Source: Candidatus Micrarchaeota archaeon
Lineage (GTDB): Archaea > Micrarchaeota > Micrarchaeia > Anstonellales > JAHKLY01
Length of the DNA: 64,000 nucleotides
Reading direction: 5' to 3'
NCBI GenBank assembly: GCA_020854825.1
Contig: JAHKLY010000002.1
Location: 1 to 64,000 of the forward strand
Below the pieces are notes generated by a model, which made no database searches, was not told where the DNA came from, and saw nothing but the letters and a program-made list of their open reading frames with translations. Both the position numbers and the translations under genes were made by a program. Each line of letters opens with the position of its first letter. The stretch's first letter is position 1. Below, piece by piece: positions 961-61,719 of the stretch.

Positions 961-1169
961 GCCGAGGTGGCGGAACCTGGTAACGCGCACGACTTGAGTA
1001 ACTTTTCTTTTCTTTTGTAAAAGAAAAGAAAACTTAACTAAAGAAAAGAAAACTTGTAGTAATCGTGTGGTCTTTGACCTTGGGGGTTCAAGAACTTTCT
1101 TCTCTTTTGAAAAAGAGAAAAAATTTTACTAAAAAGAGAAAACAAGATGAACAAATCCCTCCTTCGGCG
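961..1169 (+). tRNA. tRNA-Ser(TGA) with two introns (37/38: 999-1061; 58/59: 1092-1154)
   Basis: Acceptor GCCGAGG/CTTCGGC with G73, anticodon stem CACGA/TCGTG with CT-TGA, long variable arm GGTC-TTT-GACC, T arm GGGGG-TTCAA|AT-CCCTC. GTTC/GAAC forms the central helix at the second intron. Confidence 0.92.
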
Positions 1170-1193
1170 CTTTTAAAAAACAATGGTGATATA

Positions 1194-1808
1194 ATGGCAA
1201 AAAAAGCAGTAGTTAAAAAAGAAGAAAAAGAAAAACCACAAACACAACACAGACACATTGCAGGAAGTTTTGGTAAAGAACTTAAAGGAATTGTCCGTAT
1301 TTGTGGAAAAGATATTAATGGTGCATTAGAATTAGCTAAAGCAATAAAATATGTTCAAGGAGTTGGTATAAATTTATCTGGAGTTTATTCTGAAATTATT
1401 TCAAAAGAATTAAGTATAGATGTTAATACAAAAATTGGAGATTTAACTGAAAATCAAATAGAAAGAGTAGAAGAAATAATTAGAACTCCTCAAAAATATA
1501 AAATACCAAGTTATTTATTTAATAGAAGATTAGATCCACAAACAGGAAATCACGTTCATTTAATTAGTAATGATTTAGTATTAAATTTGAGGGAAGATAT
1601 TCAAAAAGAAATTAATTCAAGATCATGGAGAGGTGCAAGACACCAAACAAGAAAAGGAAAAGTTAGGGGACAAAAAACTAAGAACTCAGGTAGAGGCGGA
1701 GTAGCAGTTGGAGTTATAAGAAGATCAGTAAGAGCAAAGATGGGTGGAACTCAACCAAAGCCAAAAGAATCTAAAAAAGATGCCGGTGGCAAAGGAAAAA
1801 AGAAATAG
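1194..1808 (+). CDS. rps13: 30S ribosomal protein S13
   Basis: GIVRICGKDI..GVG..WRGARH..KVRGQKTK motifs. True start is the ATG at 1194 after GGTGAT; the track's 5' extension overlaps tRNA-Ser. Confidence 0.95.
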   Translation: MAKKAVVKKEEKEKPQTQHRHIAGSFGKELKGIVRICGKDINGALELAKAIKYVQGVGINLSGVYSEIISKELSIDVNTKIGDLTENQIERVEEIIRTPQKYKIPSYLFNRRLDPQTGNHVHLISNDLVLNLREDIQKEINSRSWRGARHQTRKGKVRGQKTKNSGRGGVAVGVIRRSVRAKMGGTQPKPKESKKDAGGKGKKK

Positions 1809-1817
1809 GTGATATAA

Positions 1818-2399
1818 ATGGGCGATCCAAGAAGATTAAAGAAAAGATATAGTTCTCCCGGAATTCTTTGGGATAAACAAAGAATAAAAGAAGAAAAAGG
1901 ATTAGTTAGAGAATTTGGTTTAAAAAATATGAAAGAATTGTGGAGAGCTGAAGAAGGGTTAAGAAAAGTAAGAAGAGAAGCAAGAAGATTCCAATCCTTA
2001 GGTGAAGAAAGTATTGTTGAATCAACTAATTTAATTAATAAACTAAAAGGATTAGGAATTGTAGCTCAAGAAGCAACAATTGATGATTTATTAAATTTAA
2101 AGACAAGAGATTTCTTAGAGAGAAGATTACAAACACAAGTATTCAAAAGTGGATTGGCAAGAACAGTAAAACAAGCAAGACAATTAATAACACATGGATT
2201 TATTTTTGTAGATGGGAAAAAAGTTTCAAAACCAAGTTATATGGTTAATTTGGATGAAGCAAGAACAATTTCCTATTCTAAGACAATTGATATAAATGCA
2301 GGCGTCCAAAGAGAGATAATAGAAGAAGTTAAGGCACATGCAGTTGTTGAACATGAAAAAAATGTAGGGCCCATTCCAGAAGAAGGAGAAGATGAGTAG
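1818..2399 (+). CDS. rps4: 30S ribosomal protein S4
   Basis: MGDPRR, FGLKN..ELW, LERRLQT, QARQLITHG motifs. Confidence 0.97.
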   Translation: MGDPRRLKKRYSSPGILWDKQRIKEEKGLVREFGLKNMKELWRAEEGLRKVRREARRFQSLGEESIVESTNLINKLKGLGIVAQEATIDDLLNLKTRDFLERRLQTQVFKSGLARTVKQARQLITHGFIFVDGKKVSKPSYMVNLDEARTISYSKTIDINAGVQREIIEEVKAHAVVEHEKNVGPIPEEGEDE

Positions 2400-2408
2400 G
2401 TGATATTT

Positions 2409-2882
2409 ATGGAAGATAAAAAAGTAACTGAAAAACAAATAGAAAAACCAGTTGAAAAAAATGAAGAAGAAGATAAAAATAAAATTAGATATCAGAAAAA
2501 AATAAGGTGGGCAGTAGCAAATATTTATTCATCTAAAAATAATACGTTAATTACTGTTACAGATTTAACTGGATCTGAAACTATAGCTAAGAGTTCAGGA
2601 GGAAATGTAATAAAACAAGATAGAAATAAAGGAAAACCTTATGCTGCAATGCAGGCTGCAACTAATGTAGTAGATATTTTAAAGACAAGAGGCATAAATG
2701 GATTACATATAAAGATTCGTGCACCTGGAGGGCATGGTCCAAAATCACCAGGAGCAGGAGCCCAAGCAATTGTTAGAGCAGTAGCTAGAATGGGAATTAA
2801 AGTAGGAAAAATAGAAGATGTTACTCCAGTACCAACAGATACTACCAAGAGACCTGGTGGAAGAAGAGGTAGGAGGGTATAA
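2409..2882 (+). CDS. rps11: 30S ribosomal protein S11
   Basis: [39 protein letters not shown]. Confidence 0.97.
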
Positions 2883-2884
2883 TT

Positions 2885-3457
2885 ATGGTAATTAAAATAA
2901 AAGTAGATATTGAAGATGAAAAAGTATTAAAACTTAAAGTTGAGGATTTGGAAGTTGGAACGCTTAATTCTATTCGAAGATATATAATAGGTCAAGTTCC
3001 AACATTTGCTATAGATTCAATAACTATATATGATAATTCAACATATATGTTTGATGAATTTATTGCACATAGAATAGGACAAATTCCTTTAAAAACTCCA
3101 AAAAAATATAAGGGAGATGAAGAAGTTTTATTTACTTTAGATGAAAAAGGACCAAAAGAAATTAAAGCATCAGATTTAAGAACTTCAGATAAATATGTTC
3201 AACCTGCAAAACCAGATATACATGTATTTACTTTGGGTGAAGGACAAGATTTAAGATTAGAAGGCAAGGCAGTAATTAATAAAGGAAGAAAACATGCTAA
3301 ATTTCAATCTGGAATTGCAGCATATGAAATAAATAAAGATGGAACTTATGAATTTATTGTTGAATCATTTTCACAAATGTCTCCAAGGGATGTTTTATTA
3401 AAAGCAGTGGAATTCCTTAAACAAGATGTTAAGGAATTTGAAAAACAATTGAAATAA
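2885..3457 (+). CDS. rpoD: RNA polymerase subunit Rpo3 (RpoD), short form without Fe-S domain
   Basis: NSIRR..VPTFAID..DEFIAHRIGQIP..GRKHAKF; conserved operon position. Confidence 0.93.
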   Translation: MVIKIKVDIEDEKVLKLKVEDLEVGTLNSIRRYIIGQVPTFAIDSITIYDNSTYMFDEFIAHRIGQIPLKTPKKYKGDEEVLFTLDEKGPKEIKASDLRTSDKYVQPAKPDIHVFTLGEGQDLRLEGKAVINKGRKHAKFQSGIAAYEINKDGTYEFIVESFSQMSPRDVLLKAVEFLKQDVKEFEKQLK

Positions 3458-3497
3458 GTGGAGGGACAGTATTGTCCGTCACCATTAATATGGATTT

Positions 3498-3699
3498 GCG
3501 GGGGTGGCGGAGTCTGGTCAATAACCCTTTTCCACTTTGTGTGTAAGATGTTAACGGAAAATCGTTGACTAATCGCGCACGGTTGAGGGCCGTGTGGTTT
3601 AGTACCTGCGCGCGTTCAAACACTTTTTTCTTTTTTAAGAAAAAAGAAAAACCTGTACTAAAAAGAAAAAAACAGGAAGAATAAATCGCGTCCCCCGCA
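3498..3699 (+). tRNA. tRNA-Leu(GAG) with two introns (21/22: 3522-3572; 58/59: 3620-3684)
   Basis: Acceptor GCGGGGG/CCCCCGC with A73, D stem GCGG/TCGC restored after splicing, CACGG-TT-GAG-GG-CCGTG, T arm GCGCG-TTCAA|AT-CGCGT. BHB-like helices GGTC/GACT and GTTC/GAAT. Confidence 0.92.
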
Positions 3700-3721
3700 T
3701 TATTTTAAAAGGTGATAATAT

Positions 3722-4072
3722 ATGAAAAAAGGACCTGAAAGTAAGGAAATAATAGAAGCAATTATTGCAGTTAGCAAAGCTAGTAAAAACAAAAATATTT
3801 GGAAAGATGTAAAAAAGAAATTATTAATAACAAGAAGAAATAGAGATTCAGTTAATATATCAAGAATTTCAAAATATGTTGCACAAGGAAAAACAGCAGT
3901 AGTAGCAGGAAAAGTTTTAGGAACAGGAGTAATGGATCATAAAGTAGATGTAATTGCTTTAAGTTTTTCAGAAAGTGCAAAACAAAAAATAACAAAATCA
4001 GGTGGAAAGACAATTTTATTGTCTGAAATATCTGAAAAAGAAACTGATAAAGAGTTAGTATTGATAAGGTGA
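3722..4072 (+). CDS. rpl18e: 50S ribosomal protein L18e
   Basis: VNISRI, VVAGKVLGTG, FSESAKQKI..GG. Confidence 0.95.
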   Translation: MKKGPESKEIIEAIIAVSKASKNKNIWKDVKKKLLITRRNRDSVNISRISKYVAQGKTAVVAGKVLGTGVMDHKVDVIALSFSESAKQKITKSGGKTILLSEISEKETDKELVLIR

Positions 4073-4077
4073 TTTAA

Positions 4078-4503
4078 ATGATTGTTATTGATGGTAAAGA
4101 TATGATTTTAGGAAAACTTGCTTCACATGTAGCAAAAGAATTATTAAAAAAAGAAGAGATGATAATATTAAATGCAGAACATATAATAATAACTGGAAAT
4201 AAAAAAGATATTATGGAAAAGTATCTTAAAAGAAGATCTATTAAACCAAAACAAAATCCAAGTCATAGACCAAAATGGCCAAGAGTACCAAATTTATTGG
4301 TTAGGAGAGTAGTTAGAGGAATGGTTCCATATTCTTCTTCAAGAGGCAGAGAAGCATATAAAAGATTAAGAGTTGTTGAAGGAATTCCAGAAAAATATAA
4401 AGAAAAGATTTCAGATAAAAATTATGATAAACTAAAATCAAAAAGTTTAAAGAAATTCATCACAGTTAAACAGTTATGTGAATATCTTGGGTATAATGGG
4501 TGA
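4078..4503 (+). CDS. rpl13: 50S ribosomal protein L13
   Basis: IDG..MILGKLAS.VAK.LL, NAE.I.ITG, RRVVRGMVP. Confidence 0.96.
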   Translation: MIVIDGKDMILGKLASHVAKELLKKEEMIILNAEHIIITGNKKDIMEKYLKRRSIKPKQNPSHRPKWPRVPNLLVRRVVRGMVPYSSSRGREAYKRLRVVEGIPEKYKEKISDKNYDKLKSKSLKKFITVKQLCEYLGYNG

Positions 4504-4508
4504 TTTTA

Positions 4509-4949
4509 ATGGAAAAAACTAAGAAAAAACCAACAAAAAGAAAAGTTAAATCAAAAGTTTCAATTGCAAGAGGTAAAAGAAAAGAAAGTATTGCTAGAGT
4601 TTCTATTAAAAAAGGCAAAGGAATAATAAGAATAAATAATACAAACCTTGAAGTTTATGGTTCAAGACAACAGAGACAAATTATAAAAGAGCCATTATTA
4701 TTCGCGCCAAAAATTAGTACTGAAGTCGATATTATTGTTTCAGTAAATGGAGGAGGTTCAATTGGACAAGCACAAGCAATTAGAAATGCAATTGCAATTG
4801 GTTTAATTGAATATTCTGATGATAAAGGATTAAAAGAGATATTTATGGATAGAGATAGATTTATGGTTGTTGAAGATTCAAGAAGAACAGAACCAAAGAA
4901 ATTTGGTGGTCGTGGTGCTAGAGCAAGAAAACAAAAATCATATAGATGA
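4509..4949 (+). CDS. rps9: 30S ribosomal protein S9
   Basis: GKRKESIAR, GGG.IGQAQAIR, PKKFGGRGARARKQKSYR. Confidence 0.97.
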   Translation: MEKTKKKPTKRKVKSKVSIARGKRKESIARVSIKKGKGIIRINNTNLEVYGSRQQRQIIKEPLLFAPKISTEVDIIVSVNGGGSIGQAQAIRNAIAIGLIEYSDDKGLKEIFMDRDRFMVVEDSRRTEPKKFGGRGARARKQKSYR

Positions 4950-4962
4950 GGTGTAAAAACAT

Positions 4963-5157
4963 ATGGAATTTCCTATACGATGTTTTACATGTGGTGCTCC
5001 AATTGGAGATATATACGAAAAATATGTAAATAAATTAAAAGAGAACAAAACCCCAAAGCAAGCACTAGATGAATTAGGTGTTAAAAGGTATTGTTGCAGA
5101 AGAATGTTTATTAGTTATGTTGATTTTGAAACATCTAAAAAATATAAAAAATTATAG
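4963..5157 (+). CDS. rpoN: RNA polymerase subunit Rpo10 (RpoN)
   Basis: PIRCFTCG...LDELGVKRYCCRRM. Confidence 0.97.
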   Translation: MEFPIRCFTCGAPIGDIYEKYVNKLKENKTPKQALDELGVKRYCCRRMFISYVDFETSKKYKKL

Positions 5158-5183
5158 AATCTAAGATTATTAGATTTATAACT

Positions 5184-5465
5184 GGGGGAGTAGGTTAACC
5201 TGGTATGCTGCCAGCTTGGGGTAACCTTTTTCTTTCTTTTTAAAAAAGAAAGAAAAACGTTAACGAAAAACAAAAGAAAATAAAAAAACATTAAACTCAA
5301 AAGAAAAAGAGGTTCAAAATTAGAAATTTTGAACAGATTTTTACCAAAGATAAAAAACAAAAGAAAATAAAAGAAACACAGAAAAGAAAAACGTTAACAA
5401 ATTTGTGATGTAATTTTTATGGTTCTGAAATGCTGGTGATCCGAGTTCAAATCTCGGCTCCCCCA
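5184..5465 (+). tRNA. tRNA-Pro(GGG) with a 209-nt intron at 37/38 (5222-5430)
   Basis: Acceptor GGGGGAG/CTCCCCC, CCAGC-TT-GGG-G|T-GCTGG, T arm CCGAG-TTCAAAT-CTCGG. Full BHB: TTGG/CTGA central helix, AACC/GGTT outer helix, two 3-nt bulges. tRNA-Pro after rpoN is a usual archaeal arrangement. Confidence 0.93.
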
Positions 5466-5516
5466 TTTTGAATAAGGGGTTTTCTATATGAAAACTAACT
5501 GAAGAGAGGTAATAAC

Positions 5517-6575
5517 ATGAAAGAAAAAGATATAGATGAACAACAGAATGAACCTGGTTTGATTGTAAAACAAGATAAATATTTAGAAGCCGGTGTGCAC
5601 ATCGGAACTAAGATTAAATCGGGTGGGATGAGTAGTTATATATATAGAAAAAGAAAAGATGGATTATTTGTTTTAGATCTTAAAAAAATTGATGAAAGAA
5701 TAAGATTAGCTGCAAAACAACTTGCAAGATTTGAACCTGAAAATATTTTAGTTGTAGCTTCAAGAACTTATTCTGGTATTGCAGCAGCAAATTTTAGTAA
5801 AATAACTGGAATTAAAATTTTAGCAGGTAGATTTATACCTGGTACATTAACAAATCCACAAAGACCTGGATTTTTTGAACCTGAAATATTATTAGTTTCT
5901 GATCCAAGAGGAGAAAAAGAAGCTTTAAGAGAAGCAGGTAAAGCAGGAATTCCAGTTATTGCATTGTGTGATGTGGATAGTCCAATAAAATATGTAGATT
6001 GGGTGGTTCCTTGCAATAATAAAGGTAGAAGGTCATTAGGATTAATTTTTTATTTGTTGGCTAGAGAATTTTTAGTTGCAAAAGGAGTGATTAAATCTTA
6101 TGATGAATTTGAATATTCTCCAAAAGATTTTACAAATGATATTGCTTTGAAAGAATTAGGTACATTAGAAGAACAGAAACGAGAAGAAGAAAAAGAGAAA
6201 GAACAAGAAATAGTTAAAATGGCAAAACAGATTGATGATGAACAAGAAAAACCTAAGAAAATAGAAAAGGTAAAAAAACAAGAAAATGAATTAGTAGAAG
6301 AATTAAAAGAAAAACCACAACCAAAAAGCGAACCAAAAATAATTGGAAAACCACCAAAGAAAAAACGTGAAAAAACTGAAAAAGAAAAAGAAGAAGCAAA
6401 ACCAAAAACAATTGTTTTAGAAAAACCAAAAGAAGAAAAACCAGAAAAGAAAGAAGACACACAAAAAGCAGACAAACCTAAACAAGAAAAAGAAGAAACA
6501 AAAGAAAACAAAATTGAAGAAAATACAAGTAATGAAAAAACTGAAGAACCTAAATCAGAAAATAAAACAGAGTAG
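5517..6575 (+). CDS. rps2: 30S ribosomal protein S2 with long Lys/Glu-rich C-terminal extension
   Basis: YLEAGVHIGT, GRFIPGTLTNP, PCNNKGRRS; about 140 aa low-complexity tail. Confidence 0.96.
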   Translation: MKEKDIDEQQNEPGLIVKQDKYLEAGVHIGTKIKSGGMSSYIYRKRKDGLFVLDLKKIDERIRLAAKQLARFEPENILVVASRTYSGIAAANFSKITGIKILAGRFIPGTLTNPQRPGFFEPEILLVSDPRGEKEALREAGKAGIPVIALCDVDSPIKYVDWVVPCNNKGRRSLGLIFYLLAREFLVAKGVIKSYDEFEYSPKDFTNDIALKELGTLEEQKREEEKEKEQEIVKMAKQIDDEQEKPKKIEKVKKQENELVEELKEKPQPKSEPKIIGKPPKKKREKTEKEKEEAKPKTIVLEKPKEEKPEKKEDTQKADKPKQEKEETKENKIEENTSNEKTEEPKSENKTE

Positions 6576-6626
6576 ATAATTTTCTACTTTCTTTTTTTAA
6601 TTTTTATTTTAAGTTATAATTATTTT

Positions 6627-7712
6627 TTAACCATACATTCCTTTTTCTCTAAATTGTGAGAAATCAATTTTTTTCTCTTTTGCTAAGAGTGCGCCTTCTT
6701 TTTTATCATAAATTTCTTTATTTAATGGGTCTATCACTAATGCTTTGTCATAATATTCAATTGCTTTATCAATATTTCCAGAATATGCATAAATGTCTCC
6801 TTTTCTAGTTAAAAACATAGGGTTATTTGGATCAAATTTTAATGTAATATTTATATCTTCAAGTGCCTTCTTATTTTCTTGTAGTCTAATATATACATAA
6901 CTTCTTTCAAAATACCAGATAGGTTTTGGATCTAATTTTATTGCGGTATCATATTCTTTTAATGATTTTTTATAATTTGTCATTCCTCCCAAACTAAGTA
7001 ATGTTTTTGCAATATTCCTATATATTGAATCTTTTTTTGGATCTAATTTTTTTGCTTTTTCTAAATCCTTTAGTCCTTCTTCAAAATTATTTAAATTATT
7101 TTTACAAATTCCTATTAATTCATAAAATTCTCCAGTTTCTTTTATAGAAATTGCTTTTTGAAGTAATGCAGCAGCAGTATAAAATTCTTTTTTCTTAAAA
7201 TGCTCTCTTGCATTTTCAAAAATATTTTCTGCTATATTATCAGTTTCTGTTTTTAGTTGTATAATATTTATTATTTCTTTTTTCTTTTCATAAAATTTTT
7301 CTTGAGTTGGAGCTAATTTTATTGCTTCTTCAATATCCTCCAGAGATTCCTTCGTATTATTGTTTAACATATTTGCTTTTGCTCTTAATTCATAAAATTC
7401 AGGAATGGTTGGGTTCTTTTTTATTGCATTATTTAATTCTAAAATAGTATTTTTCCAATCCTGCATTCTAAAATAAACAAATGCTTTGTTTGAATATAAG
7501 AATGCAGAATTTTTTTCTCTTTTTATTGCTTCATCATAATCTTTTAATGATTCTTTATATTTTCCTAAATTCATTTTTATAAATCCTAATGCATTATAAA
7601 CAGCAGGATCGTCTTCTATGTTTTTATTAATTAGATCTAATGCTTCTTGAAATTTTCTTTGTTTATTTAATTCCCTAACTTCTTCAAGTATTTGTTTTGT
7701 TTTTTCATCCAT
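6627..7712 (-). CDS. TPR-repeat protein
   Basis: Multiple TPR units (e.g. GDIYAYSGNIDKAIEYYDKALVIDP). Confidence 0.9.
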   Translation of the reverse strand: MDEKTKQILEEVRELNKQRKFQEALDLINKNIEDDPAVYNALGFIKMNLGKYKESLKDYDEAIKREKNSAFLYSNKAFVYFRMQDWKNTILELNNAIKKNPTIPEFYELRAKANMLNNNTKESLEDIEEAIKLAPTQEKFYEKKKEIINIIQLKTETDNIAENIFENAREHFKKKEFYTAAALLQKAISIKETGEFYELIGICKNNLNNFEEGLKDLEKAKKLDPKKDSIYRNIAKTLLSLGGMTNYKKSLKEYDTAIKLDPKPIWYFERSYVYIRLQENKKALEDINITLKFDPNNPMFLTRKGDIYAYSGNIDKAIEYYDKALVIDPLNKEIYDKKEGALLAKEKKIDFSQFREKGMYG

Positions 7713-7723
7713 ATAATTACCTT

Positions 7724-8677
7724 TTAATTAAATTTTAGATAGCAGTTATCCTTTTCCTGATTTGTTGTTATTTCTTCACATATTTCAGAATTATTTTGCA
7801 AAACAGCAATATTTATTATACATCTCCCTTCCCATTCTAAATCAGAAATATTTCTGCATTCTTCTATCTCTTTTGGATTTCCCGAATTAAAAACTCCTTG
7901 ATAACATTGCCATCTATGATAATGATTTGTTATGCCATTGCATAAAGAAGGATTATTATTATCAAATGCTGCTTGTCTATAACAATCATTTTCCCATGAT
8001 TTACTCCAAAGGTCAGTACAACAAGATGTATCTCCGGTTAATCTTGCATATTCTCTTCTGCATTCATCTTTTTCTGAACTTTGTCCTAATGTATCAAAAT
8101 TACATTTTTTACAATCCATTTCAGTAACTGCAATAGCTAAATAGCAGTGTTTTTTCCATTGACTATTTTCTTGTGTGATTTTTCTACATAAAGATTCATC
8201 TTTTGTATGCCAAGCATAATCTGCTAAACATTTATCTTTTGCATTGTTGTTTGGTGCAAGATAACATTGTTCTTTGTTTTTGATAATACTTAAACAATAA
8301 TATTGGTCTGCACTTATTTCTATTTCTCCGCATGCTTCTTCACTTGATTTATTTTTTGCAAATTCTAATAGACATTCATCATTTTCACAAATAGAAAAAT
8401 CATTTTCTTTTATTGATAAACAAATTCTTTTTTTTGTTCCAACCAATCCTTTACATGGATCTTTTGTTATTATATCAACTAATTCTGGTTCTTCTGTATC
8501 TGTAATATTTATTGTGTCATTTACTGGGGGTGCAGGTAAAACTGCTTTTGGTTCAATAACTTCTTTTTCAAAACCAATACATGCAAATAATACTAAACTC
8601 ATCGCAATAATAAAAAATGCAAAATCCATTTCTATTTGTTTTTTTGTTTTTTTTGTTAGTCTTTTCATAATTATCAC
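7724..8677 (-). CDS. Membrane-anchored Cys-rich helical-repeat protein
   Basis: N-terminal hydrophobic segment ending FAC; repeated C..I......D.CY...A units. Confidence 0.75.
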   Translation of the reverse strand: MIIMKRLTKKTKKQIEMDFAFFIIAMSLVLFACIGFEKEVIEPKAVLPAPPVNDTINITDTEEPELVDIITKDPCKGLVGTKKRICLSIKENDFSICENDECLLEFAKNKSSEEACGEIEISADQYYCLSIIKNKEQCYLAPNNNAKDKCLADYAWHTKDESLCRKITQENSQWKKHCYLAIAVTEMDCKKCNFDTLGQSSEKDECRREYARLTGDTSCCTDLWSKSWENDCYRQAAFDNNNPSLCNGITNHYHRWQCYQGVFNSGNPKEIEECRNISDLEWEGRCIINIAVLQNNSEICEEITTNQEKDNCYLKFN

Positions 8678-22184: not shown

Positions 22185-22320
22185 TGGACCAGGTGGGATT
22201 TTTAGGCAACCTATTCTCTCTTTTTCGTAAACGTTTTTCTCTTTTTTAAAAGAGAAAAGGTTTGAACCCACAGTCCCCTCGTTGCGAACGAGATATCCTA
22301 CCGGGTTAGACCACTGGCCC
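22185..22320 (-). tRNA. tRNA-Ala(CGC) with ~62-nt T-loop intron (~22200-22261)
   Basis: Reverse complement gives GGGCCAG/CTGGTCC with G3:U70, TCTCG-TT-CGC-AA-CGAGG, GTGGG-TTCAA|AT-CCCAC. The BHB is relaxed, so the exact junction is uncertain. Confidence 0.9.
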
Positions 22321-53430: not shown

Positions 53431-53449
53431 TCAAGGAGGAGATAGCCGT

Positions 53450-53896: not shown

Positions 53897-54179
53897 TATG
53901 ACAGAAGGGGGAAATTTACAACAACAAATACAAATTTTAAATATGCAAAAACAACAATTATCAGCACAACAAAAAGAATTTGATAATGCATTAGAAGAAT
54001 TAAAAAATGCTAAAGGATTAGTTTATAAATCTGCAGGTAATTTGTTAATTGAGGTTTCAAAAGAAGATGCTAAAAAAGAATTAGAAGAAAAACAAGAGAC
54101 TATAACTAAACGATTAGAAACCCTAGAACTCCAAGAAAAAAGATTAAATTCTAAGTTAAAAAACTTAGAAAAAGAGTAG
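53889..54179 (+). CDS. pfdB: Prefoldin beta subunit
   Basis: Coiled coil-VYKSAGNLLIE-coiled coil. Confidence 0.9.
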   Translation: MINMTEGGNLQQQIQILNMQKQQLSAQQKEFDNALEELKNAKGLVYKSAGNLLIEVSKEDAKKELEEKQETITKRLETLELQEKRLNSKLKNLEKE

Positions 54180-54187
54180 GTGATATA

Positions 54188-54874: not shown

Positions 54875-54883
54875 GGGAGATAA

Positions 54884-56056
54884 TTGACAACAGATAAAAA
54901 AATAGAGTATTGGTTTAAATTAACATATGATGCAGACGCAAAAACTAGATTAAAAGCTGCAAAGGAACTATCAGAATATCCAGAATCTCCAACAGCTGTT
55001 TTTGCTATTTATGAATTGACTTATGATAAAGATGAAAAAGTAAAACAATTAGCTAAAGATATAATTAATTCTTGGAAAGAAGAAGACGAAGAAATAATTC
55101 CATTAGGTGAAATATTAGCTGAAAAAATGAAAAAAGTTGAAGAAGGCACAGTAAAAGATGAAGAAAGAGATGAAAGAATAAAAGAAATTAAGAAAAAATT
55201 AATGCCTTCGTTAGAAAATTATTTCAAATCAGAGGATACTAAAAATAAATTAATGCCTTCGTTAGAAAAGCTTTTTGAAAGGTTAGTAGAATTAGAAACT
55301 AAAGGACATCAAACATTTGAAAAGAAAAGATTAGTTGAAGAAAAATCAGAACAAGAAACACAAAAGAGTTTGTTTGATGAAGATGAAGAATTAGAGATGC
55401 CTCCAGAATATAGGGAATATTTAGATACATTATCACAGATTGATAGAATTGCGTTTTCGTCAGCACCTTCTTCAAAAGGAAAGAAAAAAATAAAAATCAA
55501 AAAGATTAAAGAGCATAGAGATAAAGAGGAAGTAGAAGAAATGCTTGAAGAAGTAGAAGAAGAAACTGAAGAAGAAGAAAAAATACCTACTGCAGATATT
55601 TTTGAAAGGACAATTTATAAAAAAGCATTTAAATTACAAACAACTCCAGGTATTACACAGAGTCTAATAAATCAAGAGATGAAACGAACAATACATGAAT
55701 ATTCATTGAAGATTAAGTCCGCATTTTCATTAGCTAAATTAAGATCCACACGTAATGAAATAGATAAAATATCAGATTTAGAAAAAGGTATGAAAAATAT
55801 ATATACTGCTGCTTTTAAAGTTGAAGAAGTTGAAAATAAAGAAATTAAAAGAGGAACCAGAACTTCAAATTATTTAAGAATAGTATTATCTGATAAATCT
55901 GGAAAATTCCCCGTTTTTATTTGGAAAGGAAGGGGCAGAGGGATATATGAAAATGAATATATTAAATTAGAAAATGCATTTGTAGATGAATATCCAGAAA
56001 TAGGTGAAATTGCACTTTCAATAGATAAAAAAGGAAAAATAATTGTTATAAAATAA
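54884..56056 (+). CDS. HEAT-repeat + acidic linker + OB-fold protein
   Basis: N-terminal L..D....R..AA.L / L..D.DE.V...A; C-terminal I.DL..G.KN......V......L.DKSG...V.IW......E.IKLENA. Confidence 0.7.
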   Translation: MTTDKKIEYWFKLTYDADAKTRLKAAKELSEYPESPTAVFAIYELTYDKDEKVKQLAKDIINSWKEEDEEIIPLGEILAEKMKKVEEGTVKDEERDERIKEIKKKLMPSLENYFKSEDTKNKLMPSLEKLFERLVELETKGHQTFEKKRLVEEKSEQETQKSLFDEDEELEMPPEYREYLDTLSQIDRIAFSSAPSSKGKKKIKIKKIKEHRDKEEVEEMLEEVEEETEEEEKIPTADIFERTIYKKAFKLQTTPGITQSLINQEMKRTIHEYSLKIKSAFSLAKLRSTRNEIDKISDLEKGMKNIYTAAFKVEEVENKEIKRGTRTSNYLRIVLSDKSGKFPVFIWKGRGRGIYENEYIKLENAFVDEYPEIGEIALSIDKKGKIIVIK

Positions 56057-56133
56057 CTCTCATTTTAATGTTTTCAAACGCTTTTTAAATACTACTTATC
56101 AATATATTAATACGTCAATTTTTGGTGTTTTTT

Positions 56134-57603
56134 ATGAATGAGGAGGAATTTATTAAAGGAATTTTAGATAAAGGAATGCGATTAACCCCAGAAGCATCAA
56201 AGTTGATTTTAGAAGTAAAAGATAAAGAAAAAATTCTTGATAATTTAATAAGAGAAGGATTTACAATAATAACTAAAGAAGATTTAGAATCAATTATCGC
56301 AGAATATGAAAAAATTCCAGAGCCAGAAGTTGAAATTAAAAGAAAAAACTCTTTTGAACCAATAGCAAAAGATTATGCTTTTAATATTAGAGTTTATCCA
56401 GATAAAGACATAACAAACAATTCAAGATGCACTGGAAAACCTGAAGATTTTGTTATGTATTTTAGAAGTAGGTTATTAATGACTAAATCTGTTTTATCTG
56501 AGCGTATCGGTGAAACACCAATAATTAGAATTAATGAATTAAAAACAAGAAACAATTCAGATGTTAGATTAATAGGTATGGTTATTGATAAAAGAGATTC
56601 ACAAAAAGGAAATTTAATAGTTGAAATTGAAGATGAACAAGAAGTATGTTTAGTTATTATGATGAAAAGTGATGAAAATGTATATGCTTTAGCAGATCAA
56701 ATTGTATTAGATGATATTTTATTATTTGAAGGAAGAGTTTATAATGGAATTTTAATAGCAAAAGAAATTATTTGGCCAGATATACCTATAATGAGGAATA
56801 AAAAAACAATAGAAGAGGATCTAGCTGTTGCTTATTTATCAGATCTGCATGTTGGGAGTAAATTATTTATGGAAAAAGAATTTAACAAATTCTTAGATTG
56901 GATAAATGGGAATGGAGAAGATAAAGAGTTAGCAGGTAAGATAAAGTATATTAGTATTTCTGGAGATATAGTTGATGGGATAGGAATTTATCCTAGACAA
57001 GAAGATGAATTAGTAGTTAAAGATATTTATAAACAATATGGAATTTTTATGGATTTAATGGAGAAAATACCAGATTATATTAAAGTTATTGTAAGTCCAG
57101 GAAATCACGATGCAGTAAGAAGAGCACAACCTCAACCACAGTTACCTAAGGAATTACTTAATGGAAAAACATTAAATGTTGGTAGTCCTTCTTGGATTGA
57201 TTTAGAAGGATTTAAACATTTAATTTACCATGGGGATTCACTTGATTCAATAATTTCTTCTTTATCAAATTGTGATCATACTCATCCGGAAGTGCCTATG
57301 ATAGAACTTTTAAAAAGAAGGAATTTATCTCCAATTTATGGAAGGAATCCAATTGTTCCTGAAAAAAAAGATTATCTATTCATTGATCAAATACCAGATG
57401 TTTTACATATGGGACATGTACATAAAAATGGATACTCTTTGTATAGAGGAACACATATAATTAATTCAGGAACATTTCAAGAACGTACAAATTTTCAAAT
57501 AAAACAAGGACATATTCCAACTCCGGGCATAGTGCCAATTTTATGTATGAAAACTGGAGAGGTAGTGCATAAAAAATTTGTAGCTGGTGTTAATTATGGT
57601 TGA
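56134..57603 (+). CDS. polB: DNA polymerase D small subunit DP1
   Basis: SDLHVGS, GDIVDGIGIYP.Q, PGNHDA, YHG, HMGHVH, NSGTFQ. Confidence 0.96.
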   Translation: MNEEEFIKGILDKGMRLTPEASKLILEVKDKEKILDNLIREGFTIITKEDLESIIAEYEKIPEPEVEIKRKNSFEPIAKDYAFNIRVYPDKDITNNSRCTGKPEDFVMYFRSRLLMTKSVLSERIGETPIIRINELKTRNNSDVRLIGMVIDKRDSQKGNLIVEIEDEQEVCLVIMMKSDENVYALADQIVLDDILLFEGRVYNGILIAKEIIWPDIPIMRNKKTIEEDLAVAYLSDLHVGSKLFMEKEFNKFLDWINGNGEDKELAGKIKYISISGDIVDGIGIYPRQEDELVVKDIYKQYGIFMDLMEKIPDYIKVIVSPGNHDAVRRAQPQPQLPKELLNGKTLNVGSPSWIDLEGFKHLIYHGDSLDSIISSLSNCDHTHPEVPMIELLKRRNLSPIYGRNPIVPEKKDYLFIDQIPDVLHMGHVHKNGYSLYRGTHIINSGTFQERTNFQIKQGHIPTPGIVPILCMKTGEVVHKKFVAGVNYG

Positions 57604-60600
57604 AATTACAAAAAAAATGGAAAATTATTTTAATATGCTTGAAATGTATTTAAATAAAGAATATACTATTGCACAAAAAGCTAGAAAAAAAGGATTAGAT
57701 CCAAAAACGGAAGTAGAAACTAAATTTGCACAAGATGTTGCAGGAAGAGTTGAAGGATTAGTAGGTCCGGAAGGAATTGCAGAAGAAATTAGAATTTTAG
57801 AAAACCAAGGAATGCAAAGAACAATTATTGCATATGAAATTGTAAAAAAATTAGTGAATTTAAATAAAGAAAAAGGAGTTGAAAAAGCAATTGATCAAGC
57901 TGTAAGAACAGGAGTTGCTATTTTAACCGAAGGAGTATTAGTTGCACCAACAGAAGGAATAGGAGGATTAAAAATAAATCAAAATCCGGATGGTACTGAT
58001 TATTTATCTATATATTTTTCAGGACCTATTAGAAGTGCAGGAGGGACAATTGCAGCATTAAGTGTAGTATTAGCAGATGTTGCAAGAAGAGAAGTTGGAA
58101 TTAAGGATTATAGACCAACAGATACGGAATTAGATAGATATGTTGAAGAAATAACTATTTATGATGCAAGAGATTCACGATTACAATATATGCCAACAGA
58201 ACAAGAAATAAAAACAATTGTAAAAAATTGTCCTGTTTGTATTGAAGGAGATCCAACAAGTAAATTTGAAGTTGCAGTATATAGGAATATGGAAAGAATA
58301 AAAACAAATAGATTAAGGGGAGGTATGGCATTAGTTATAGGAGAGGGAATAGCACAAAAAGCACCAAAAGTTTTTAAATATACAAAACAAATTGGATTAG
58401 ATTGGGATTGGATTGAATCAATTATGAAAGTTAAATCATCAAGCAAAGGAACTGTTGAAATAAAACCAATAAATACATATATAAGTGAAATACTTGCAGG
58501 AAGACCTATTTTTTCATATCCTATGGTAAAAGGAGGATTTAGGTTAAGATATGGAAGAACAAGAATAAGTGGTATAATGGCCAAATGTATTCATCCTGCC
58601 ACTATGGAAATTTTAGATGAATTTCCTGCAATAGGTACTCAATTAAAAATCGAAAGGCCGGGAAAAGGGTGTATTGTTTTGCCTTGTGATTCAATAGATC
58701 CACCTATTGTTAAACTTACTAATGGAGATGTAATTAGAGTTAATTCTATACAAGAAGCAAAACAATTGAAATCCCAAGTAGAAGAAGTATTATTTTTAGG
58801 AGATATGTTAATTACAATTGGGGATTTTATAAAATCAAATCATCCATTAATACCAGGAGCTTTTTGTGAAGAGTGGTGGGATGTAATTTGTGAATCTAAA
58901 AATTGTAAAATAAAAGAGGATTTTGATGTTTATGATGCATTTGAATTTTCAAAAGAAAATGAAGTTCCTTTACATCCGAGATATCTTTATTTTTGGGGGG
59001 ATATAAGTTCTACGCAATTAAAAGAATTATCAGAAGAAATAGTAAACGCAGAAATTGAATTTGAGTCATTAGGTATTTTAGGTAAAATTTCTAATTTCAA
59101 ATTATCAACAGAAAACAAAAAAGTTAAAAGAACATTAGAGGAATTAGGAGTAATACATAGAGTTAGAGAAAATAAAATAATATTAGATCCAGAAACTGCA
59201 TATTCTGTTTTAACTACATTAGGAATAAAAAATGGTAAAGACCTTTCATTAGATAAATTCAATAAAGTTTGGGATGAGGACAAAAAAGTTTTGGAAATGT
59301 TGAATGAATTATCTGGAATAGAACTTAAAAATAAAGCACCCATATATATTGGTTCAAGAATGGGCCGTCCTGAAAAAGCTAAAGAAAGAGAAATGACTCC
59401 AGATGTTAATGTTTTATTTCCATTAGGACATATAAGCAAACACAGAGATATTATTAAAACATATAATGAATTAAAAGAAAAAACAAAAGATAGGGGAATA
59501 AAAATAGAAATCTCGAGAAGAAAGTGTAAAGAATGCGGGAAAATAACTTTTTATAATTTATGTGATTGTGGGAGTGAAACAGAACCTCAAAAAATATGTT
59601 CGAAATGTGGGAGAGAAATAAAGGTAGGGGATGAATGTCCTTGTGGAGGAAAGGTTTGTATTTATGATTCAAGATCCATTAATATTGTAAATATATTGGA
59701 TGAACTAAAAGAAAGAATTGGGAATAAATTACCAGATAAAATAAAAGGAGTAAAAGGATTAATTAATAGCTCAAAAATACCTGAAAGACTTGAAAAAGGA
59801 GTATTTAGATCAAAATATGGATTATCTTGTTTTAAAGATGGGACTTCTAGATTTGATTTTACAGATGCACCTATGACTCATTTTAAACCAAATGAAATTG
59901 GAGTTTCAGTTGAAAAGATAAAAGAATTAGGATATAAACATGATTATTTAGGAAAAGAAATAACAGACGGAGATCAAGTTATTGAAATGTTTCCTCAAGA
60001 TTTTATTGTTTCTGAAGATGGAATAAAATTTTTTATTAAAACAGCCAATTTTGTAGATGAGATATTAGTATATTTATATCATTTACCTCCATATTATAAT
60101 ATTAAGACGCATGAAGATGTAATTGGTCATTTGACAGTTATACAATCCCCCCATACTTCTGCTGGAATTTTATCAAGACTTATTGGGTATACAAAAGGAA
60201 GAGTTGCATATATGCACCCGTATTTAGTTTGTGGTACAAGGAGAAATTGTGATGGAGATGAAAATTGTTTTATGGTTTTAATGGATGTGTTGTTGAATTT
60301 TTCAAGAAGCTACTTACCTGAAACAAGAGGGGGAACTATGGATATTCCAATTGTTTTAACTACAATCTTAAATCCTAAAGAAGTTGATGATGAAGTTCAT
60401 GTAATGGAAGCAATAAATAAACTTCCCTTAGAATTTTATGAAAAAACGGAATTATTTGAAAACCCAAGTAATCTTAACTTAGAATTAATTGAAAATAAGT
60501 TAGAAAAACCAGATAAGTATGAAAATATATATTTTACACATGATGTTTCTAATATAAATCTTGGACCAACAAGAACTACTTATGTTCAATTTAAGAGTAT

Positions 60601-60994
60601 GAAAGATAAAGTTGGTGCACAATTTGAGTTACATAAAAAGATAAGAGCAGTTGATGCAGTTGATGCAGCTGAAAAATTAATTTTGAGTCATTTTATACCA
60701 GATCTTTATGGTAATTTAAGAAAATTTTCACAACAAACTTTTAGGTGTGTAAATTGTAATGAGAAATATAGGCGGGTTCCTTTAATTGGTAAATGCAGAA
60801 AATGTGGTGGAAAAATTGTTTTAACTGTATATCAAGGAGGAGTAACTAAATATCTTAAATTATCTCAAGAAATGGCGCAAAAATATGATTTGCCTATTTA
60901 TCTTAAACAGCGCCTTGAATTATTAGAAAAAGATATTGCAAGTATTTTCGTAGACGAAAAAGCCCCGCAAGTCTCACTTTCTGAATTTATGTAA
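57596..60994 (+). CDS. polC: DNA polymerase D large subunit DP2 (no intein)
   Basis: TEGV..AP.EGI, GPIRSAGGT, GFRLRYGR, FKDGT.RFD, RRNCDGDE, C-terminal Zn finger. Confidence 0.97.
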   Translation: MVEITKKMENYFNMLEMYLNKEYTIAQKARKKGLDPKTEVETKFAQDVAGRVEGLVGPEGIAEEIRILENQGMQRTIIAYEIVKKLVNLNKEKGVEKAIDQAVRTGVAILTEGVLVAPTEGIGGLKINQNPDGTDYLSIYFSGPIRSAGGTIAALSVVLADVARREVGIKDYRPTDTELDRYVEEITIYDARDSRLQYMPTEQEIKTIVKNCPVCIEGDPTSKFEVAVYRNMERIKTNRLRGGMALVIGEGIAQKAPKVFKYTKQIGLDWDWIESIMKVKSSSKGTVEIKPINTYISEILAGRPIFSYPMVKGGFRLRYGRTRISGIMAKCIHPATMEILDEFPAIGTQLKIERPGKGCIVLPCDSIDPPIVKLTNGDVIRVNSIQEAKQLKSQVEEVLFLGDMLITIGDFIKSNHPLIPGAFCEEWWDVICESKNCKIKEDFDVYDAFEFSKENEVPLHPRYLYFWGDISSTQLKELSEEIVNAEIEFESLGILGKISNFKLSTENKKVKRTLEELGVIHRVRENKIILDPETAYSVLTTLGIKNGKDLSLDKFNKVWDEDKKVLEMLNELSGIELKNKAPIYIGSRMGRPEKAKEREMTPDVNVLFPLGHISKHRDIIKTYNELKEKTKDRGIKIEISRRKCKECGKITFYNLCDCGSETEPQKICSKCGREIKVGDECPCGGKVCIYDSRSINIVNILDELKERIGNKLPDKIKGVKGLINSSKIPERLEKGVFRSKYGLSCFKDGTSRFDFTDAPMTHFKPNEIGVSVEKIKELGYKHDYLGKEITDGDQVIEMFPQDFIVSEDGIKFFIKTANFVDEILVYLYHLPPYYNIKTHEDVIGHLTVIQSPHTSAGILSRLIGYTKGRVAYMHPYLVCGTRRNCDGDENCFMVLMDVLLNFSRSYLPETRGGTMDIPIVLTTILNPKEVDDEVHVMEAINKLPLEFYEKTELFENPSNLNLELIENKLEKPDKYENIYFTHDVSNINLGPTRTTYVQFKSMKDKVGAQFELHKKIRAVDAVDAAEKLILSHFIPDLYGNLRKFSQQTFRCVNCNEKYRRVPLIGKCRKCGGKIVLTVYQGGVTKYLKLSQEMAQKYDLPIYLKQRLELLEKDIASIFVDEKAPQVSLSEFM

Positions 60995-61046
60995 AATTTA
61001 CTTTTGTAAATTTGACATATTTACAACAGAGTTGTAAATCATGTGA

Positions 61047-61119
61047 TAACCTTTTTCTTTCTTTTTAAAAAGAAAGAAAAACGTTAACGAAAAAGAAAAG
61101 AAACAAAAAGAAAGAAAAA
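61047..61119 (+). repeat. Free-standing copy of the tRNA-intron hairpin/mirror-repeat element
   Basis: TAACCTTTTTCTTTCTTTTTAAAAAGAAAGAAAAACGTTAACGAAAAA matches 5222-5270 except for one A in the central run; no tRNA exons flank it. Confidence 0.88.
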
Positions 61120-61227
61120 TAAAGGAAAAAAATAAAACTTTAATGAAAAAGAGTATTTTAGTAGAGTTATAAAAAAGAAATTAAAAGCAACAAAAGAACT
61201 TTCTGATTTAGCAAATGAGATATTAAG

Positions 61228-61485
61228 TTAATCATCGTTTTTCATGCTTTCTAATGCGCTTAAAATAGTCCAAATTTGAGTTCTTGCATGTGAAGGAATA
61301 TTTATATCTTCTGCTATCTCTTCAAGAGAATAAACAACTGCGCCAATTTTTAAAGTAGCATCTTCATTTGTTTTTAATCTTTTTTTAGCATCTGTAATTG
61401 TTTTTCTAATATTTTTTGGAATAGAAGTATCTTCTTCAATTTCATCCATAATATCTATAATATCATTAAGATTAATTTCTGTCAT
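61228..61485 (-). CDS. UPF0147 family protein
   Basis: EDTSIPKNIR....A...L....LEEI..D.N.P.HART.IW...S.LE. Confidence 0.9.
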   Translation of the reverse strand: MTEINLNDIIDIMDEIEEDTSIPKNIRKTITDAKKRLKTNEDATLKIGAVVYSLEEIAEDINIPSHARTQIWTILSALESMKNDD

Positions 61486-61510
61486 ATTCACCACCCTCAC
61501 AATTAATAAG

Positions 61511-61719
61511 CGGGCCTGGAGAGATTTATTTGTTTATTTCTTTTCTTTTTAGTTGAGTTTTTTATTTTCTTTTTTAAAGAAAAGAAAAAAGTCATTGAAC
61601 TCTCGACCATCAGCTTAGAAGGCTTACGTGATATAGTTTTCTTTTTTGGAAAACGTAGCTTTTTTCTTTTACAAAAGAAAAAAGATCGTGCCGCTCTGTC
61701 CAAGCTGAGCTACAGGCCC
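61511..61719 (-). tRNA. tRNA-Arg(TCT) with two introns (29/30: 61624-61688; 58/59: 61526-61594)
   Basis: Reverse complement gives GGGCCTG/CAGGCCC with G73, GCTC/GAGC, GCA|GC-CT-TCT-AA-GCTGA, GAGAG-TTCAA|AT-CTCTC. Confidence 0.9.

Follow-up and report, generated by a model that had tools for sequence, protein, structure and literature searches.

Many non-canonical bulge-helix-bulge (BHB) introns interrupt the transfer RNA (tRNA) genes of Candidatus Micrarchaeum ARMAN-2, which possesses a three-unit epsilon2 endonuclease (PMC3239211, PMC12397907). Intron transposition among the tRNA genes of Thermoproteales is cited in the first of these papers and serves as a positive control in a preprint on Asgard archaea (bioRxiv 10.64898/2026.10.13.758758), in the parts of these texts that were available. 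Here we describe a short repeated module in a stretch of 64,000 nucleotides (nt) from a Candidatus Micrarchaeota archaeon (contig JAHKLY010000002.1), termed “the window” below, which comprises bases 1-64000 of contig 2 of the genome G000. Each module copy consists of a pyrimidine tract (Y), a loop, a complementary purine tract (R), a linker and a third, purine tract (R’), and several copies lie within introns of tRNA genes. Our verdict is that the module most likely represents a previously undescribed family of structured repeats whose geometry is that of an intrastrand triplex, and this family appears to have colonised tRNA introns.

The organism and ARMAN-2 belong to the same phylum, have the same type of enzyme and carry heavily interrupted tRNA genes, including two introns in one T-loop region. 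The available main text on ARMAN-2 features no intron hairpin, stem-loop, U-rich or A-rich element, shared module, third tract or copies outside tRNA genes, while its supplementary tRNA tables may list similar inserts. As in Thermoproteales, similar introns occupy different positions and tRNAs of one genome, vary in presence between relatives and co-exist with a broad-specificity endonuclease. Near-identical introns at several sites, combined with the presence or absence of the tRNA-Ala(CGC) intron in two congeners, are the marks of a transposed intron family. The differences from Thermoproteales, as far as the accessible accounts go, are the other lineage, the defined module, a three-way sequence rule that outlasts sequence change and the existence of copies outside introns.

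REP elements are short hairpin repeats with a conserved 5’ flank, which are found after stop codons or between cistrons and are mobilised by Y1 (RAYT) transposases. The module shares the short hairpin, the conserved 5’ flank and the post-stop and intercistronic sites with them. We know of no REP with a third tract and of none that acts as a tRNA intron, and G000 yields no match to a Y1 transposase, nor does any such enzyme track the module. The bacterial intrastrand triplex repeats BoxC, PIT and TMECO are G/C-rich and of the type CCCTCTCCC / GGGAGAGGG / GGGTGAGGG (PMC4666352). Like these multi-copy conserved repeats, the module shows the class II tract order on one strand (Y, R, reverse-Hoogsteen purine tract); its complementary strand has the class IV order (Hoogsteen pyrimidine tract, Y, R). 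The likeness of its geometry to bacterial intrastrand-triplex repeats had been recognised in an earlier, sequence-based account of the window (the preliminary description). The third tract mirrors R and is compatible with A-A-T and G-G-C triplets, as is required of an intrastrand triplex repeat. Unlike the bacterial repeats, the module is A/T-rich, archaeal and situated in tRNA introns, and its second loop is mostly 8 nt long, beyond the 1-6 nt covered by the bacterial search. The term “tRNA” is absent from the available text of PMC4666352. Finally, the triple helices of ENE elements and MALAT1 combine two U-rich strands with one A-rich strand (U.A-U), and that of MALAT1 lies just upstream of a tRNA-like structure (PMC7583470). 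Judged by the available part of that source, a U-rich/A-rich three-tract arrangement at RNA 3’ ends is common to both, but the sense strand of the module offers one pyrimidine and two purine tracts in 46 of 47 copies. An ENE-like order (Y’, Y, R) occurs only on the complementary strand, or on the tRNA strand in a single reversed copy (C4:107261-107309). No account of the architecture was found in the consulted portions of the literature on archaeal tRNA introns and intrastrand triplex repeats, in agreement with the novelty that had been suggested for it.

The module is about 50 nt long. A short, RRCC-like 5’ flank, often TAACC, TGACC or TAGCC, is followed by a perfect hairpin of 9-17 bp with an all-pyrimidine 5’ arm and an all-purine 3’ arm, a turn and the third purine tract. 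The first loop, between Y and R, comprises 2-7 nt (mostly 2-4). The linker between R and R’ measures 8 nt in 70/114 copies, 5-6 nt in 22/114 (6 nt in 21/114) and more than 8 nt in 22/114, and its ends are self-complementary in 37/114 copies versus 8.0 expected (1000 shuffles, maximum 17); given these ends and the preferred length, the linker resembles a tight turn. Within the hairpin, 6 of 14 base pairs vary on both sides, and none of 500 shuffles attains the observed covariation score.

The third tract follows a rule. A scan of G000 for hairpins with an all-pyrimidine 5’ arm identified 56 perfect Y/R hairpins of at least 8 bp, and 44 of the 49 with a stem of at least 9 bp are accompanied, on one strand only, by a third tract that matches at 80% or more and lies 5-19 nt downstream. 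At the 39 asymmetric loci R’ is a mirror of R in 33 cases and a direct repeat in three, with three ties (18, two and one, respectively, by distinct type). Perfect mirrors are found at 25/44 loci when R is compared with its own R’, versus 106/1790 cross-locus pairings with the R’ of a different type, and the mean identity of R’ amounts to 0.955 versus 0.685 in 500 shuffles of the downstream sequence (maximum 0.726). The pattern Y10-N2-6-R10-N5-15-R10 matches 92+104 times in G000 and 0+3 times when written backwards, in counts that are inflated by overlapping matches.

The rule extends to relatives, where a first set of 33 hairpins contains 25 mirrors, five ties, two direct repeats and one hairpin devoid of a third tract, and a second set of 31 contains 26 mirrors, three ties, one symmetric tract and one direct repeat. 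Pooling 127 hairpins from 27 genomes yields 120 third tracts, and the 113 asymmetric ones divide into 96 mirrors, 11 ties and six direct repeats. Since tracts with one or two G are internally symmetric, the test was repeated on asymmetrically spaced tracts with at least three G (n=39, 17 genomes), with the outcome of 33 mirrors, five ties and one direct repeat (23, two and one by type). Accordingly, the proposal that R’ covaries with Y and R, and does so as a mirror rather than a direct repeat, holds in a much larger multi-genome set than the window, and shuffled sequence never reaches the observed match.

One might suspect that chance purine and pyrimidine runs in A/T-rich DNA, and thus an artefact of reading, simulate such a rule, given that G000 has a G+C content of only 28% and that tracts with one or two G distinguish mirror from direct repeat by the lengths of their end runs alone. 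This reading conflicts with the 33/5/1 result in the diagnostic tracts and with the absence of the Y10/R10 pattern from six relatives, and it is ruled out, down to a negligible residual probability, by the shuffles, the cross-locus controls, the backwards pattern (196 versus 3) and the strand-specific model matches. The three-way rule is therefore confirmed as a real sequence rule, which is kept through many tract variants.

Seven inserts in five tRNA genes of the window, recognised by reading their flanks, all display the order Y, loop, R, linker, R’, just as had been claimed (Table 1). Five quoted module strings each occur exactly once, at 1003-1032 (+), 1100-1123 (+), 3624-3651 (+), 22234-22258 (-) and 61659-61684 (-), and have no match in 100 dinucleotide shuffles. 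Six inserts fall within the stated range of 62-69 nt and only the tRNA-Pro insert is longer. Insert boundaries were set by hand with the BHB rule, and several are ambiguous by a few bases because identical letters flank both splice sites.

Among the 80 relatives listed for an FtsZ-like ORF of the window, nearly all come from Micrarchaeota/Micrarchaeia assemblies, which places the organism within the DPANN archaea. The genome as a whole (828 kb in 7 contigs, 28% G+C, rated 97.6% complete; Micrarchaeota, DPANN) illustrates how such genes escape detection. With default settings ARAGORN finds no tRNA in the window and Rfam finds two; in unspliced G000 as a whole ARAGORN recovers only nine, even if introns in the anticodon loop are allowed. 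Rfam searches at gathering and permissive thresholds and ARAGORN defaults are blind to interrupted genes and were used as a baseline only. A covariance model termed R1, built from 28 copies in G000, retrieves 54 matches in this genome, namely 47 full-length copies, all on one strand, and seven hairpin-only partial matches on the opposite strand. According to a classification made partly by eye, 36 of the 47 copies reside within tRNA genes and are oriented such that the Y arm precedes the R arm in the tRNA sense. The other 11 comprise six copies after same-strand open reading frames (ORFs), three in tRNA trailers or spacers, one reversed copy, which ends 4 nt before the 5’ end of a tRNA(CAT), and one in a region of unexplained content. 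Module inserts interrupt the D-loop, the anticodon stem and loop, the variable/T-stem region and the T-loop, and the 36 tRNA copies in these four regions bear out the view of one structure-conserved family in different tRNAs and at different splice positions. A subfamily with tracts of the type T3-C-T4-C-T2 and the linker CCCTAGGG, for instance, is found in the D-loop of tRNA-Leu(TAA), the anticodon loop of tRNA-Ala(TGC) and the D-loop of another tRNA.

Splice sites were enumerated by a BHB rule (4-bp central helix, 3-nt bulges, cut after the second bulge base), and the products were submitted to ARAGORN. In-silico excision restores complete tRNAs for 22 module copies in approximately 17 genes by our count, including Ala-CGC, Arg-TCG, Arg-TCT, Lys-CTT, Cys-GCA, Trp-CCA, Phe-GAA, Leu-CAA, Leu-TAG, Thr-TGT, Ser-GCT, Ser-GGA, Gly-TCC, Glu-CTC and Ile-GAT. 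Many copies show 4/4 central BHB pairs plus an outer or inner helix, by an uncalibrated score of our own. The strict rule fails in 28 of 42 clusters and relaxed boundaries added six genes; Ile(GAT), with only 2/4 central pairs, and the first Ser(TGA) intron were recovered with relaxed boundaries and poor scores. G000 encodes a single splicing endonuclease, a three-unit protein of 414 amino acids (aa) with two endonuclease domains, which matches 4fz2_A over its full length (E=2e-136). This structure is taken to be the ARMAN-2 endonuclease, in line with the title of PMC3488258. An RtcB ligase is also encoded (E=9e-153). On these grounds we infer that the module copies in tRNA genes form the core of spliceable BHB introns. 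As a separate observation, the RtcB profile matches G000:C1:3685-6369 (+) in two pieces (1-50 and 46-426), which lie approximately 1.36 kb apart in one 937-aa frame, with an intein-sized insertion between them. Another intron family, which starts with ACGCGAAGCGTTGAGATTTTGAACGC, is found in the T-loops of tRNA-Ala(GGC) and tRNA-Leu(TAA) (G000:C3:226800-227000, G000:C4:81250-81400), so that G000 harbours several intron families besides the module.

Copies outside introns are placed in a conspicuous manner. Five begin 2-6 nt after the stop codons of complete same-strand genes, which encode a thermosome, DnaK/Hsp70, ribosomal protein S10, an Lhr-type helicase and a 104-aa ORF, and the stop codon falls within the conserved flank of the module (TAAC, TAACC, TAGGCC). 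A sixth copy lies 58 nt past the stop codon of the gene for the DNA polymerase subunit PolD DP2. That five of six post-ORF copies should lie so close to a stop codon has a chance probability of roughly 5e-7 by a conservative estimate. All 36 tRNA copies and all six post-ORF copies are in the sense orientation, and one of the 47 is reversed. The possibility that the thermosome copy is an intron of a protein gene was rejected, since the thermosome gene covers its profile in full and the frame that follows belongs to a separate ThiI gene. In G083, a genome that belongs to another family, the spacer between L30 and L15 is filled by a copy that begins 3 nt past the L30 stop codon, and a second copy is located between S5 and L30. 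By eye, several other genera carry copies directly behind tRNA 3’ ends, and in the families f6 and f17 most copies are seen in canonical anticodon-loop introns or trailers.

Three further observations concern sequences beside such copies. About eight tandem A-rich units of 13 nt follow straight after R’ of the thermosome module (L129 1805-1890, G000:C3). On contig 7 (L134, G000:C7:5600-7000), two modules at approximately 6337-6475 (-) enclose about 40 nt with a C-box-like TGATGA and a D-box-like CTGA, and this stretch contains no tRNA and matches no Rfam family. A hairpin repeat unit of the type GCATTTGAT...ATCAAATAGC recurs in post-tRNA spacers, sometimes with a module behind it (G000:C1:36957-37400 (-), L135 650-800).

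The three-tract pattern is abundant in seven genomes (G000, G001, G004, G007, G011, G017, G018), and a pattern scan did not find it in six others (G002, G003, G008, G013, G016, G020). Pattern-rich genomes mostly give 8-16 Rfam tRNA matches versus 27-63 in the six genomes devoid of the pattern, G018 (43) and G012 (28) being exceptions. Within the order, R1 has matches at E<=1e-4 in 24 of 151 genomes, which represent 14 of 45 genera; in a sample of the phylum, 13 of 151 genomes match at E<=1e-5, among them five from other orders of the class. The copies from other orders follow the same three-tract rule and even contain the same CGTTAACG linker.

At single sites the module turns over rapidly. 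The coding DNA of G001, which belongs to the same genus, shares about 77-83% identity with that of G000, and the tRNA exons are nearly identical, yet the inserts differ. For 49 G000 hairpins queried, approximately 19 orthologous sites were located by eye in the G001 DNA that was covered; 17 of these carry a module in both species, about ten with clearly different G-spacing, and two G000 inserts are absent from G001. Approximately four anchors in this comparison matched paralogues or repeats, and three sites scored as “no module” carry a module with one hairpin mismatch. The absent inserts include the Ala(CGC) T-loop intron: the G001 gene is uninterrupted there and equals the spliced G000 junction, so that presence/absence at an orthologous tRNA site is indeed found. 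By eye, a single subfamily with a shared hairpin mismatch is found in G001 in the T-loops of Arg-TCT, Lys-CTT and Trp-CCA, three sites that hold a different type each in G000. One copy in G083 is bordered on both sides by a perfect direct duplication of 23 nt; the L30 start codon forms part of this duplication, which marks out the inserted unit as running from the flank through Y, the loop, R and the linker to R’. Copying of the module between sites over evolutionary time thus appears well supported, and as judged from the genomes compared, the module is to be regarded as patchily distributed across the class Micrarchaeia and quickly replaced at a given site.

Several agents of such copying were considered and rejected. 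A flanking repeat above the shuffle range occurs in only one of 119 copies, which excludes target-site duplication as a general feature, and with it a transposon of the miniature inverted-repeat (MITE) type. Y1 transposases (PF01797) have no match in the module-bearing genomes G000, G004, G005 and G007 and four in the module-less G003, and reverse transcriptases have no match in G000 and do not co-occur with the module; mobilisation by either enzyme was therefore rejected. Viral contigs contained no match for two exact tract patterns.

Table 1. tRNA genes, module introns and the non-intron module copy in the window (E values refer to covariance model R1)
Feature	Position	Strand	Module or R1 match	Basis
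tRNA-Ser(TGA) gene, two module introns	961..1169	+		sequence read; in-silico excision gives Ser tga among ARAGORN calls
Ser(TGA) anticodon-loop intron (~37/38), 63 nt	999..1061	+	998-1053	exact string; R1 match E=7e-8
Ser(TGA) T-loop intron (58/59), 63 nt	1092..1154	+	1092-1143	exact string; R1 match E=4e-6
tRNA-Leu(GAG) gene, D-loop intron of other kind and T-loop module intron	3498..3699	+		sequence read
Leu(GAG) T-loop module intron, 65 nt	3620..3684	+	3619-3672	exact string; R1 match E=3.5e-8
tRNA-Pro gene, single long intron	5184..5465	+		sequence read; both exons conserved in G001
Pro anticodon-loop intron, ~210 nt, module with degenerate R’ at its start	5222..5431	+	5222-5278	R1 match E=1.8e-9; approximate hand boundaries
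tRNA-Ala(CGC) gene	22185..22320	-		excision of 62 nt gives 76-nt tRNA-Ala cgc in ARAGORN
Ala(CGC) T-loop module intron, 62 nt	22202..22263	-	22213-22264	exact string; R1 match E=1.1e-8
tRNA-Arg(TCT) gene, two module introns	61511..61719	-		excision of both gives 74-nt tRNA-Arg tct
Arg(TCT) anticodon-stem intron (29/30 by hand boundaries), 65 nt	61624..61688	-	61637-61688 (R1 match)	exact string
Arg(TCT) T-loop module intron, 69 nt, 6-nt hairpin loop	61526..61594	-	61538-61594 (R1 match)	covariance model R1
Non-intron module copy, 58 nt after PolD DP2 stop (gene 57584-60994)	61047..61102	+		best R1 match in genome, E=1.6e-10; ORF map and Pfam

The individual copies of the window exemplify these trends. 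The exons of tRNA-Ser(TGA) are identical to those of the G001 orthologue and the inserts differ. In the first Ser(TGA) intron the tract is symmetric (13/14 matches for both mirror and direct repeat), and the strict BHB rule gives no clean boundary, which remains ambiguous. The T-loop intron of this gene has a BHB central helix GTTC/GAAC with 4/4 pairs, and another tract type occupies the same site in G001. In the Leu(GAG) T-loop intron, whose hand boundaries derive from a GTTC/GAAT helix, the mirror (12/12) exceeds the direct repeat (11/12); a one-G tract in G000 faces a G-A-G tract in G001, altered alike in Y, R and R’. The Ala(CGC) intron combines 4/4 central BHB pairs with a 5-bp outer helix. 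In the Arg(TCT) anticodon-stem intron R’ is, as had been noted, a mirror (11/12) rather than a direct repeat (9/12); ARAGORN also accepts a junction after nt 25, and the exact position is thus ambiguous. At the Arg(TCT) T-loop site G001 carries another tract type (by eye). The tRNA-Pro insert, in which R’ was rightly described as degenerate (mirror and direct repeat 12/14 each), differs in length and content in G001, and the anticodon reads TGG or GGG depending on the exact splice point. The preliminary description did not include the copy behind PolD DP2, the eighth in the window and not an intron, nor the genome-wide and clade-wide extent of the family. Its proposal of a mobile mini-element that spreads as BHB introns stands as regards the family, its turnover and its copying between sites, and falls short in that the module is not confined to introns (11/47 elsewhere).

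Other inserts and repeats were observed in or near these genes. The tRNA-Leu(GAG) D-loop carries an insert that has no Y/R/R’ module (~3522-3571, +) and is missing from G001, where the exons are otherwise nearly identical, and hence represents a further presence/absence case. The tRNA-Thr(CGT) gene that adjoins tRNA-Ala (22433-22325, -) is interrupted in its T-loop by a mixed-sequence hairpin that belongs to another family, and the T-loop of the G001 tRNA-Thr in the syntenic locus L123 is uninterrupted. The long tRNA-Pro intron holds a conserved stretch of about 40 nt that includes a hairpin (GGTTCAAAATTAGAAATTTTGAAC, then AGATTTTTACC; 5311-5350, +) and recurs on contig 5 of G000 just downstream of 38482 (-), after the module behind the 104-aa ORF. 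The tRNA-Pro intron of G001 contains tandem units of a linker plus an R-like tract. In four public DNA runs the assembled contigs, which include related sequences of other organisms, stop at module copies (3643 and 5203-5380 of the window), indicating that module repeats break short-read assemblies; G001 synteny with the window also stops at the PolD copy and tRNA-Arg. The contigs of the four runs showed no joint devoid of an intron and are uninformative on expression or polymorphism.

What the third tract might serve is constrained by its geometry. Neither Watson-Crick pairing nor, as far as we have reasoned, a symmetric protein dimer gives a meaning to a mirror purine tract, as each would demand a direct repeat. 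A third strand that runs antiparallel on the purine strand of a duplex requires a mirror by definition, and no physical reason other than a fold-back, three-stranded structure is known for placing such a tract next to a Y-R helix. According to PMC4666352, in its available part, RNA cannot adopt triplexes of the purine motif, which rely on G-G-C triplets, while those of the pyrimidine motif do form in RNA and are driven by T-A-T. The tracts are A/T-rich with 1-4 G, a composition that is unfavourable for the purine motif of the sense strand and favourable for the pyrimidine motif of the complementary strand; known chemistry consequently favours the complementary strand or DNA over tRNA-sense RNA, and triplex formation in the transcript would be chemically doubtful. 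Minimum-energy folds of 43 copies leave R’ fully unpaired in 22 and place it in the loop of a 5-bp hairpin in 16; in some symmetric copies R’ pairs with Y. In T-loop introns the outer BHB helix starts 0-2 nt past R’. As the 5-bp hairpin and the adjoining BHB helix return the 3’ end of R’ to the hairpin base, a full-length third strand in the pre-tRNA is disfavoured. Y is also the exact parallel complement of R’, and a U-rich RNA arm could conceivably bind an R’ duplex by Hoogsteen pairing.

The explanation towards which we lean, with confidence only a little above even, is an element family that needs a three-stranded fold and supplies both intron cores and gene-end copies, with spliceability as the sole condition imposed in tRNA genes. 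A site-specific tail behind R’ would pair with the upstream exon and complete the BHB, whereby the three-unit, broad-specificity endonuclease and RtcB could remove the insert. The element would need the three-stranded fold to propagate or persist, single-stranded or supercoiled DNA being a more likely carrier than tRNA-sense RNA, and survival inside tRNA genes would hinge on spliceability alone. Because every subfamily keeps the three-way rule despite copying and fast replacement, the rule is best understood as a requirement of the element itself.

Several points weigh against this explanation. Fourteen of the 36 tRNA-intron assignments rely on exon-like flanks recognised by eye and lack a tRNA call, as their genes also hold introns of other families. 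A number of ARAGORN calls are ambiguous or implausible (a 160-nt tRNA-Pyl and conflicting identities for clusters 0, 5, 7, 34 and 38), and these were left uncounted. The flanking duplication recurs in none of the other 118 of 119 copies examined, and no mobilising enzyme tracks the module. The tight placement after stop codons and between cistrons suggests a role at the level of the host rather than a purely selfish one, and a uniform sense orientation is not obviously expected of a function in DNA. The mirror breaks at the tract ends, since an R that ends in G or GG usually faces an R’ that starts with C or CC, which lengthens the turn. Finally, R1 derives from G000 copies and hence undercounts the module in divergent relatives, so that the numbers given for other genomes are minimum values.

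The tRNA core itself uses A.A-U and G.G-C major-groove triples, which lends some support to a rival reading, the strong form of that in the preliminary description, in which the tRNA-sense RNA folds as a purine-motif triple helix with R’ antiparallel on the R arm, selected for example because it protects excised or circular introns and 3’ untranslated regions from exonucleases or presents the BHB. It would account for the consistent orientation in transcribed DNA (all 36 tRNA and all six post-ORF copies in sense, one of 47 reversed), for a tight, often self-complementary turn of fixed length and for the R’ left fully unpaired in 22/43 folds, but not readily for the R’ enclosed by a 5-bp stem in 16/43 or for the BHB helix that begins directly behind R’ in T-loop introns. 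R’ has moreover decayed in copies that presumably are still spliced, namely in Pro and in the D-loop of Arg(CCT), which is degenerate in G000 and perfect in G001. Even though the location at RNA 3’ ends is reminiscent of triple-helix stability elements (PMC7583470, as far as available), we regard an RNA triple helix under such selection as rather unlikely. An RNA read-out of the three-tract rule could also take a more specific form, either a long natural purine-motif (A.A-U/G.G-C) RNA triplex or a nascent U-rich arm on a downstream R’ duplex, and either might offer a handle for copying into tRNA genes and gene ends independently of transposase and reverse transcriptase; this is an improbable speculation.

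The placement behind stop codons lends itself to another reading, in which a host-beneficial gene-end element akin to the bacterial REP/BoxC repeats, a stabiliser of transcript 3’ ends or intercistronic regions or a terminator-associated structure, came first and tRNA introns captured it as their distal hairpin. Copies 2-6 nt past the stops of complete housekeeping genes (5/6, P ~5e-7), copies behind tRNA 3’ ends in other genera, the two filled spacers in the S5-L30-L15 cluster of G083 and the predominance of canonical anticodon-loop introns and trailers in f6 and f17 (by eye) speak for it. Yet only about six of roughly 900 protein genes in G000 carry a copy, and the mirror tract is left unexplained. 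With its T-rich arm first, the module would make an odd terminator within tRNA genes, which require read-through; a T-rich run distinct from the module lies behind the S10 copy, and genes follow closely behind the G083 copies, which argues against a simple terminator. We judge a gene-end origin unlikely. A conformational switch, in which R and R’ compete for Y and the Y-R’ pairing extends the outer BHB helix and thereby toggles splice competence, can draw on the T-loop introns of Ala(CGC), Ser(GCT), Leu(CAA), Ile(GAT) and Lys(CTT), where symmetric or nearly symmetric tracts permit Y-R’ pairing into the flanking helix. However, Y could form Watson-Crick pairs with R’ only if R’ repeated R directly, and the mirror preference (96/113; 33/39 in diagnostic tracts) largely refutes such pairing for asymmetric tracts, while copies outside introns obey the same mirror rule, which makes a switch very improbable. 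The element family that needs a three-stranded fold thus remains our preferred explanation.

The module accounts for practical anomalies of these genomes: it explains why standard tools recover only nine tRNA genes from a genome that is 98% complete, and its copies explain the assembly breaks at these loci. Beyond this, the module bears on the question of how tRNA introns of archaea reach new sites. The Asgard preprint tested copying, mobile elements and reverse transcription and, in its available part, arrives at no general route of intron gain (bioRxiv 10.64898/2026.10.13.758758). The unit described here is short (about 50 nt), recognisable and of defined extent, a fresh insertion of it being bounded by a 23-bp duplication, and it turns over between congeners with unchanged exons, rendering intron gain directly testable in one clade. 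The mirror rule bears on whether intrastrand triplexes are biology or a curiosity; maintained through dozens of independent tract variants in 27 genomes, it constitutes strong comparative evidence for a three-stranded or like-with-like structure in vivo in archaea. If true, an RNA read-out of the rule would amount to a long, natural RNA purine-motif triplex, a structure thought not to exist.

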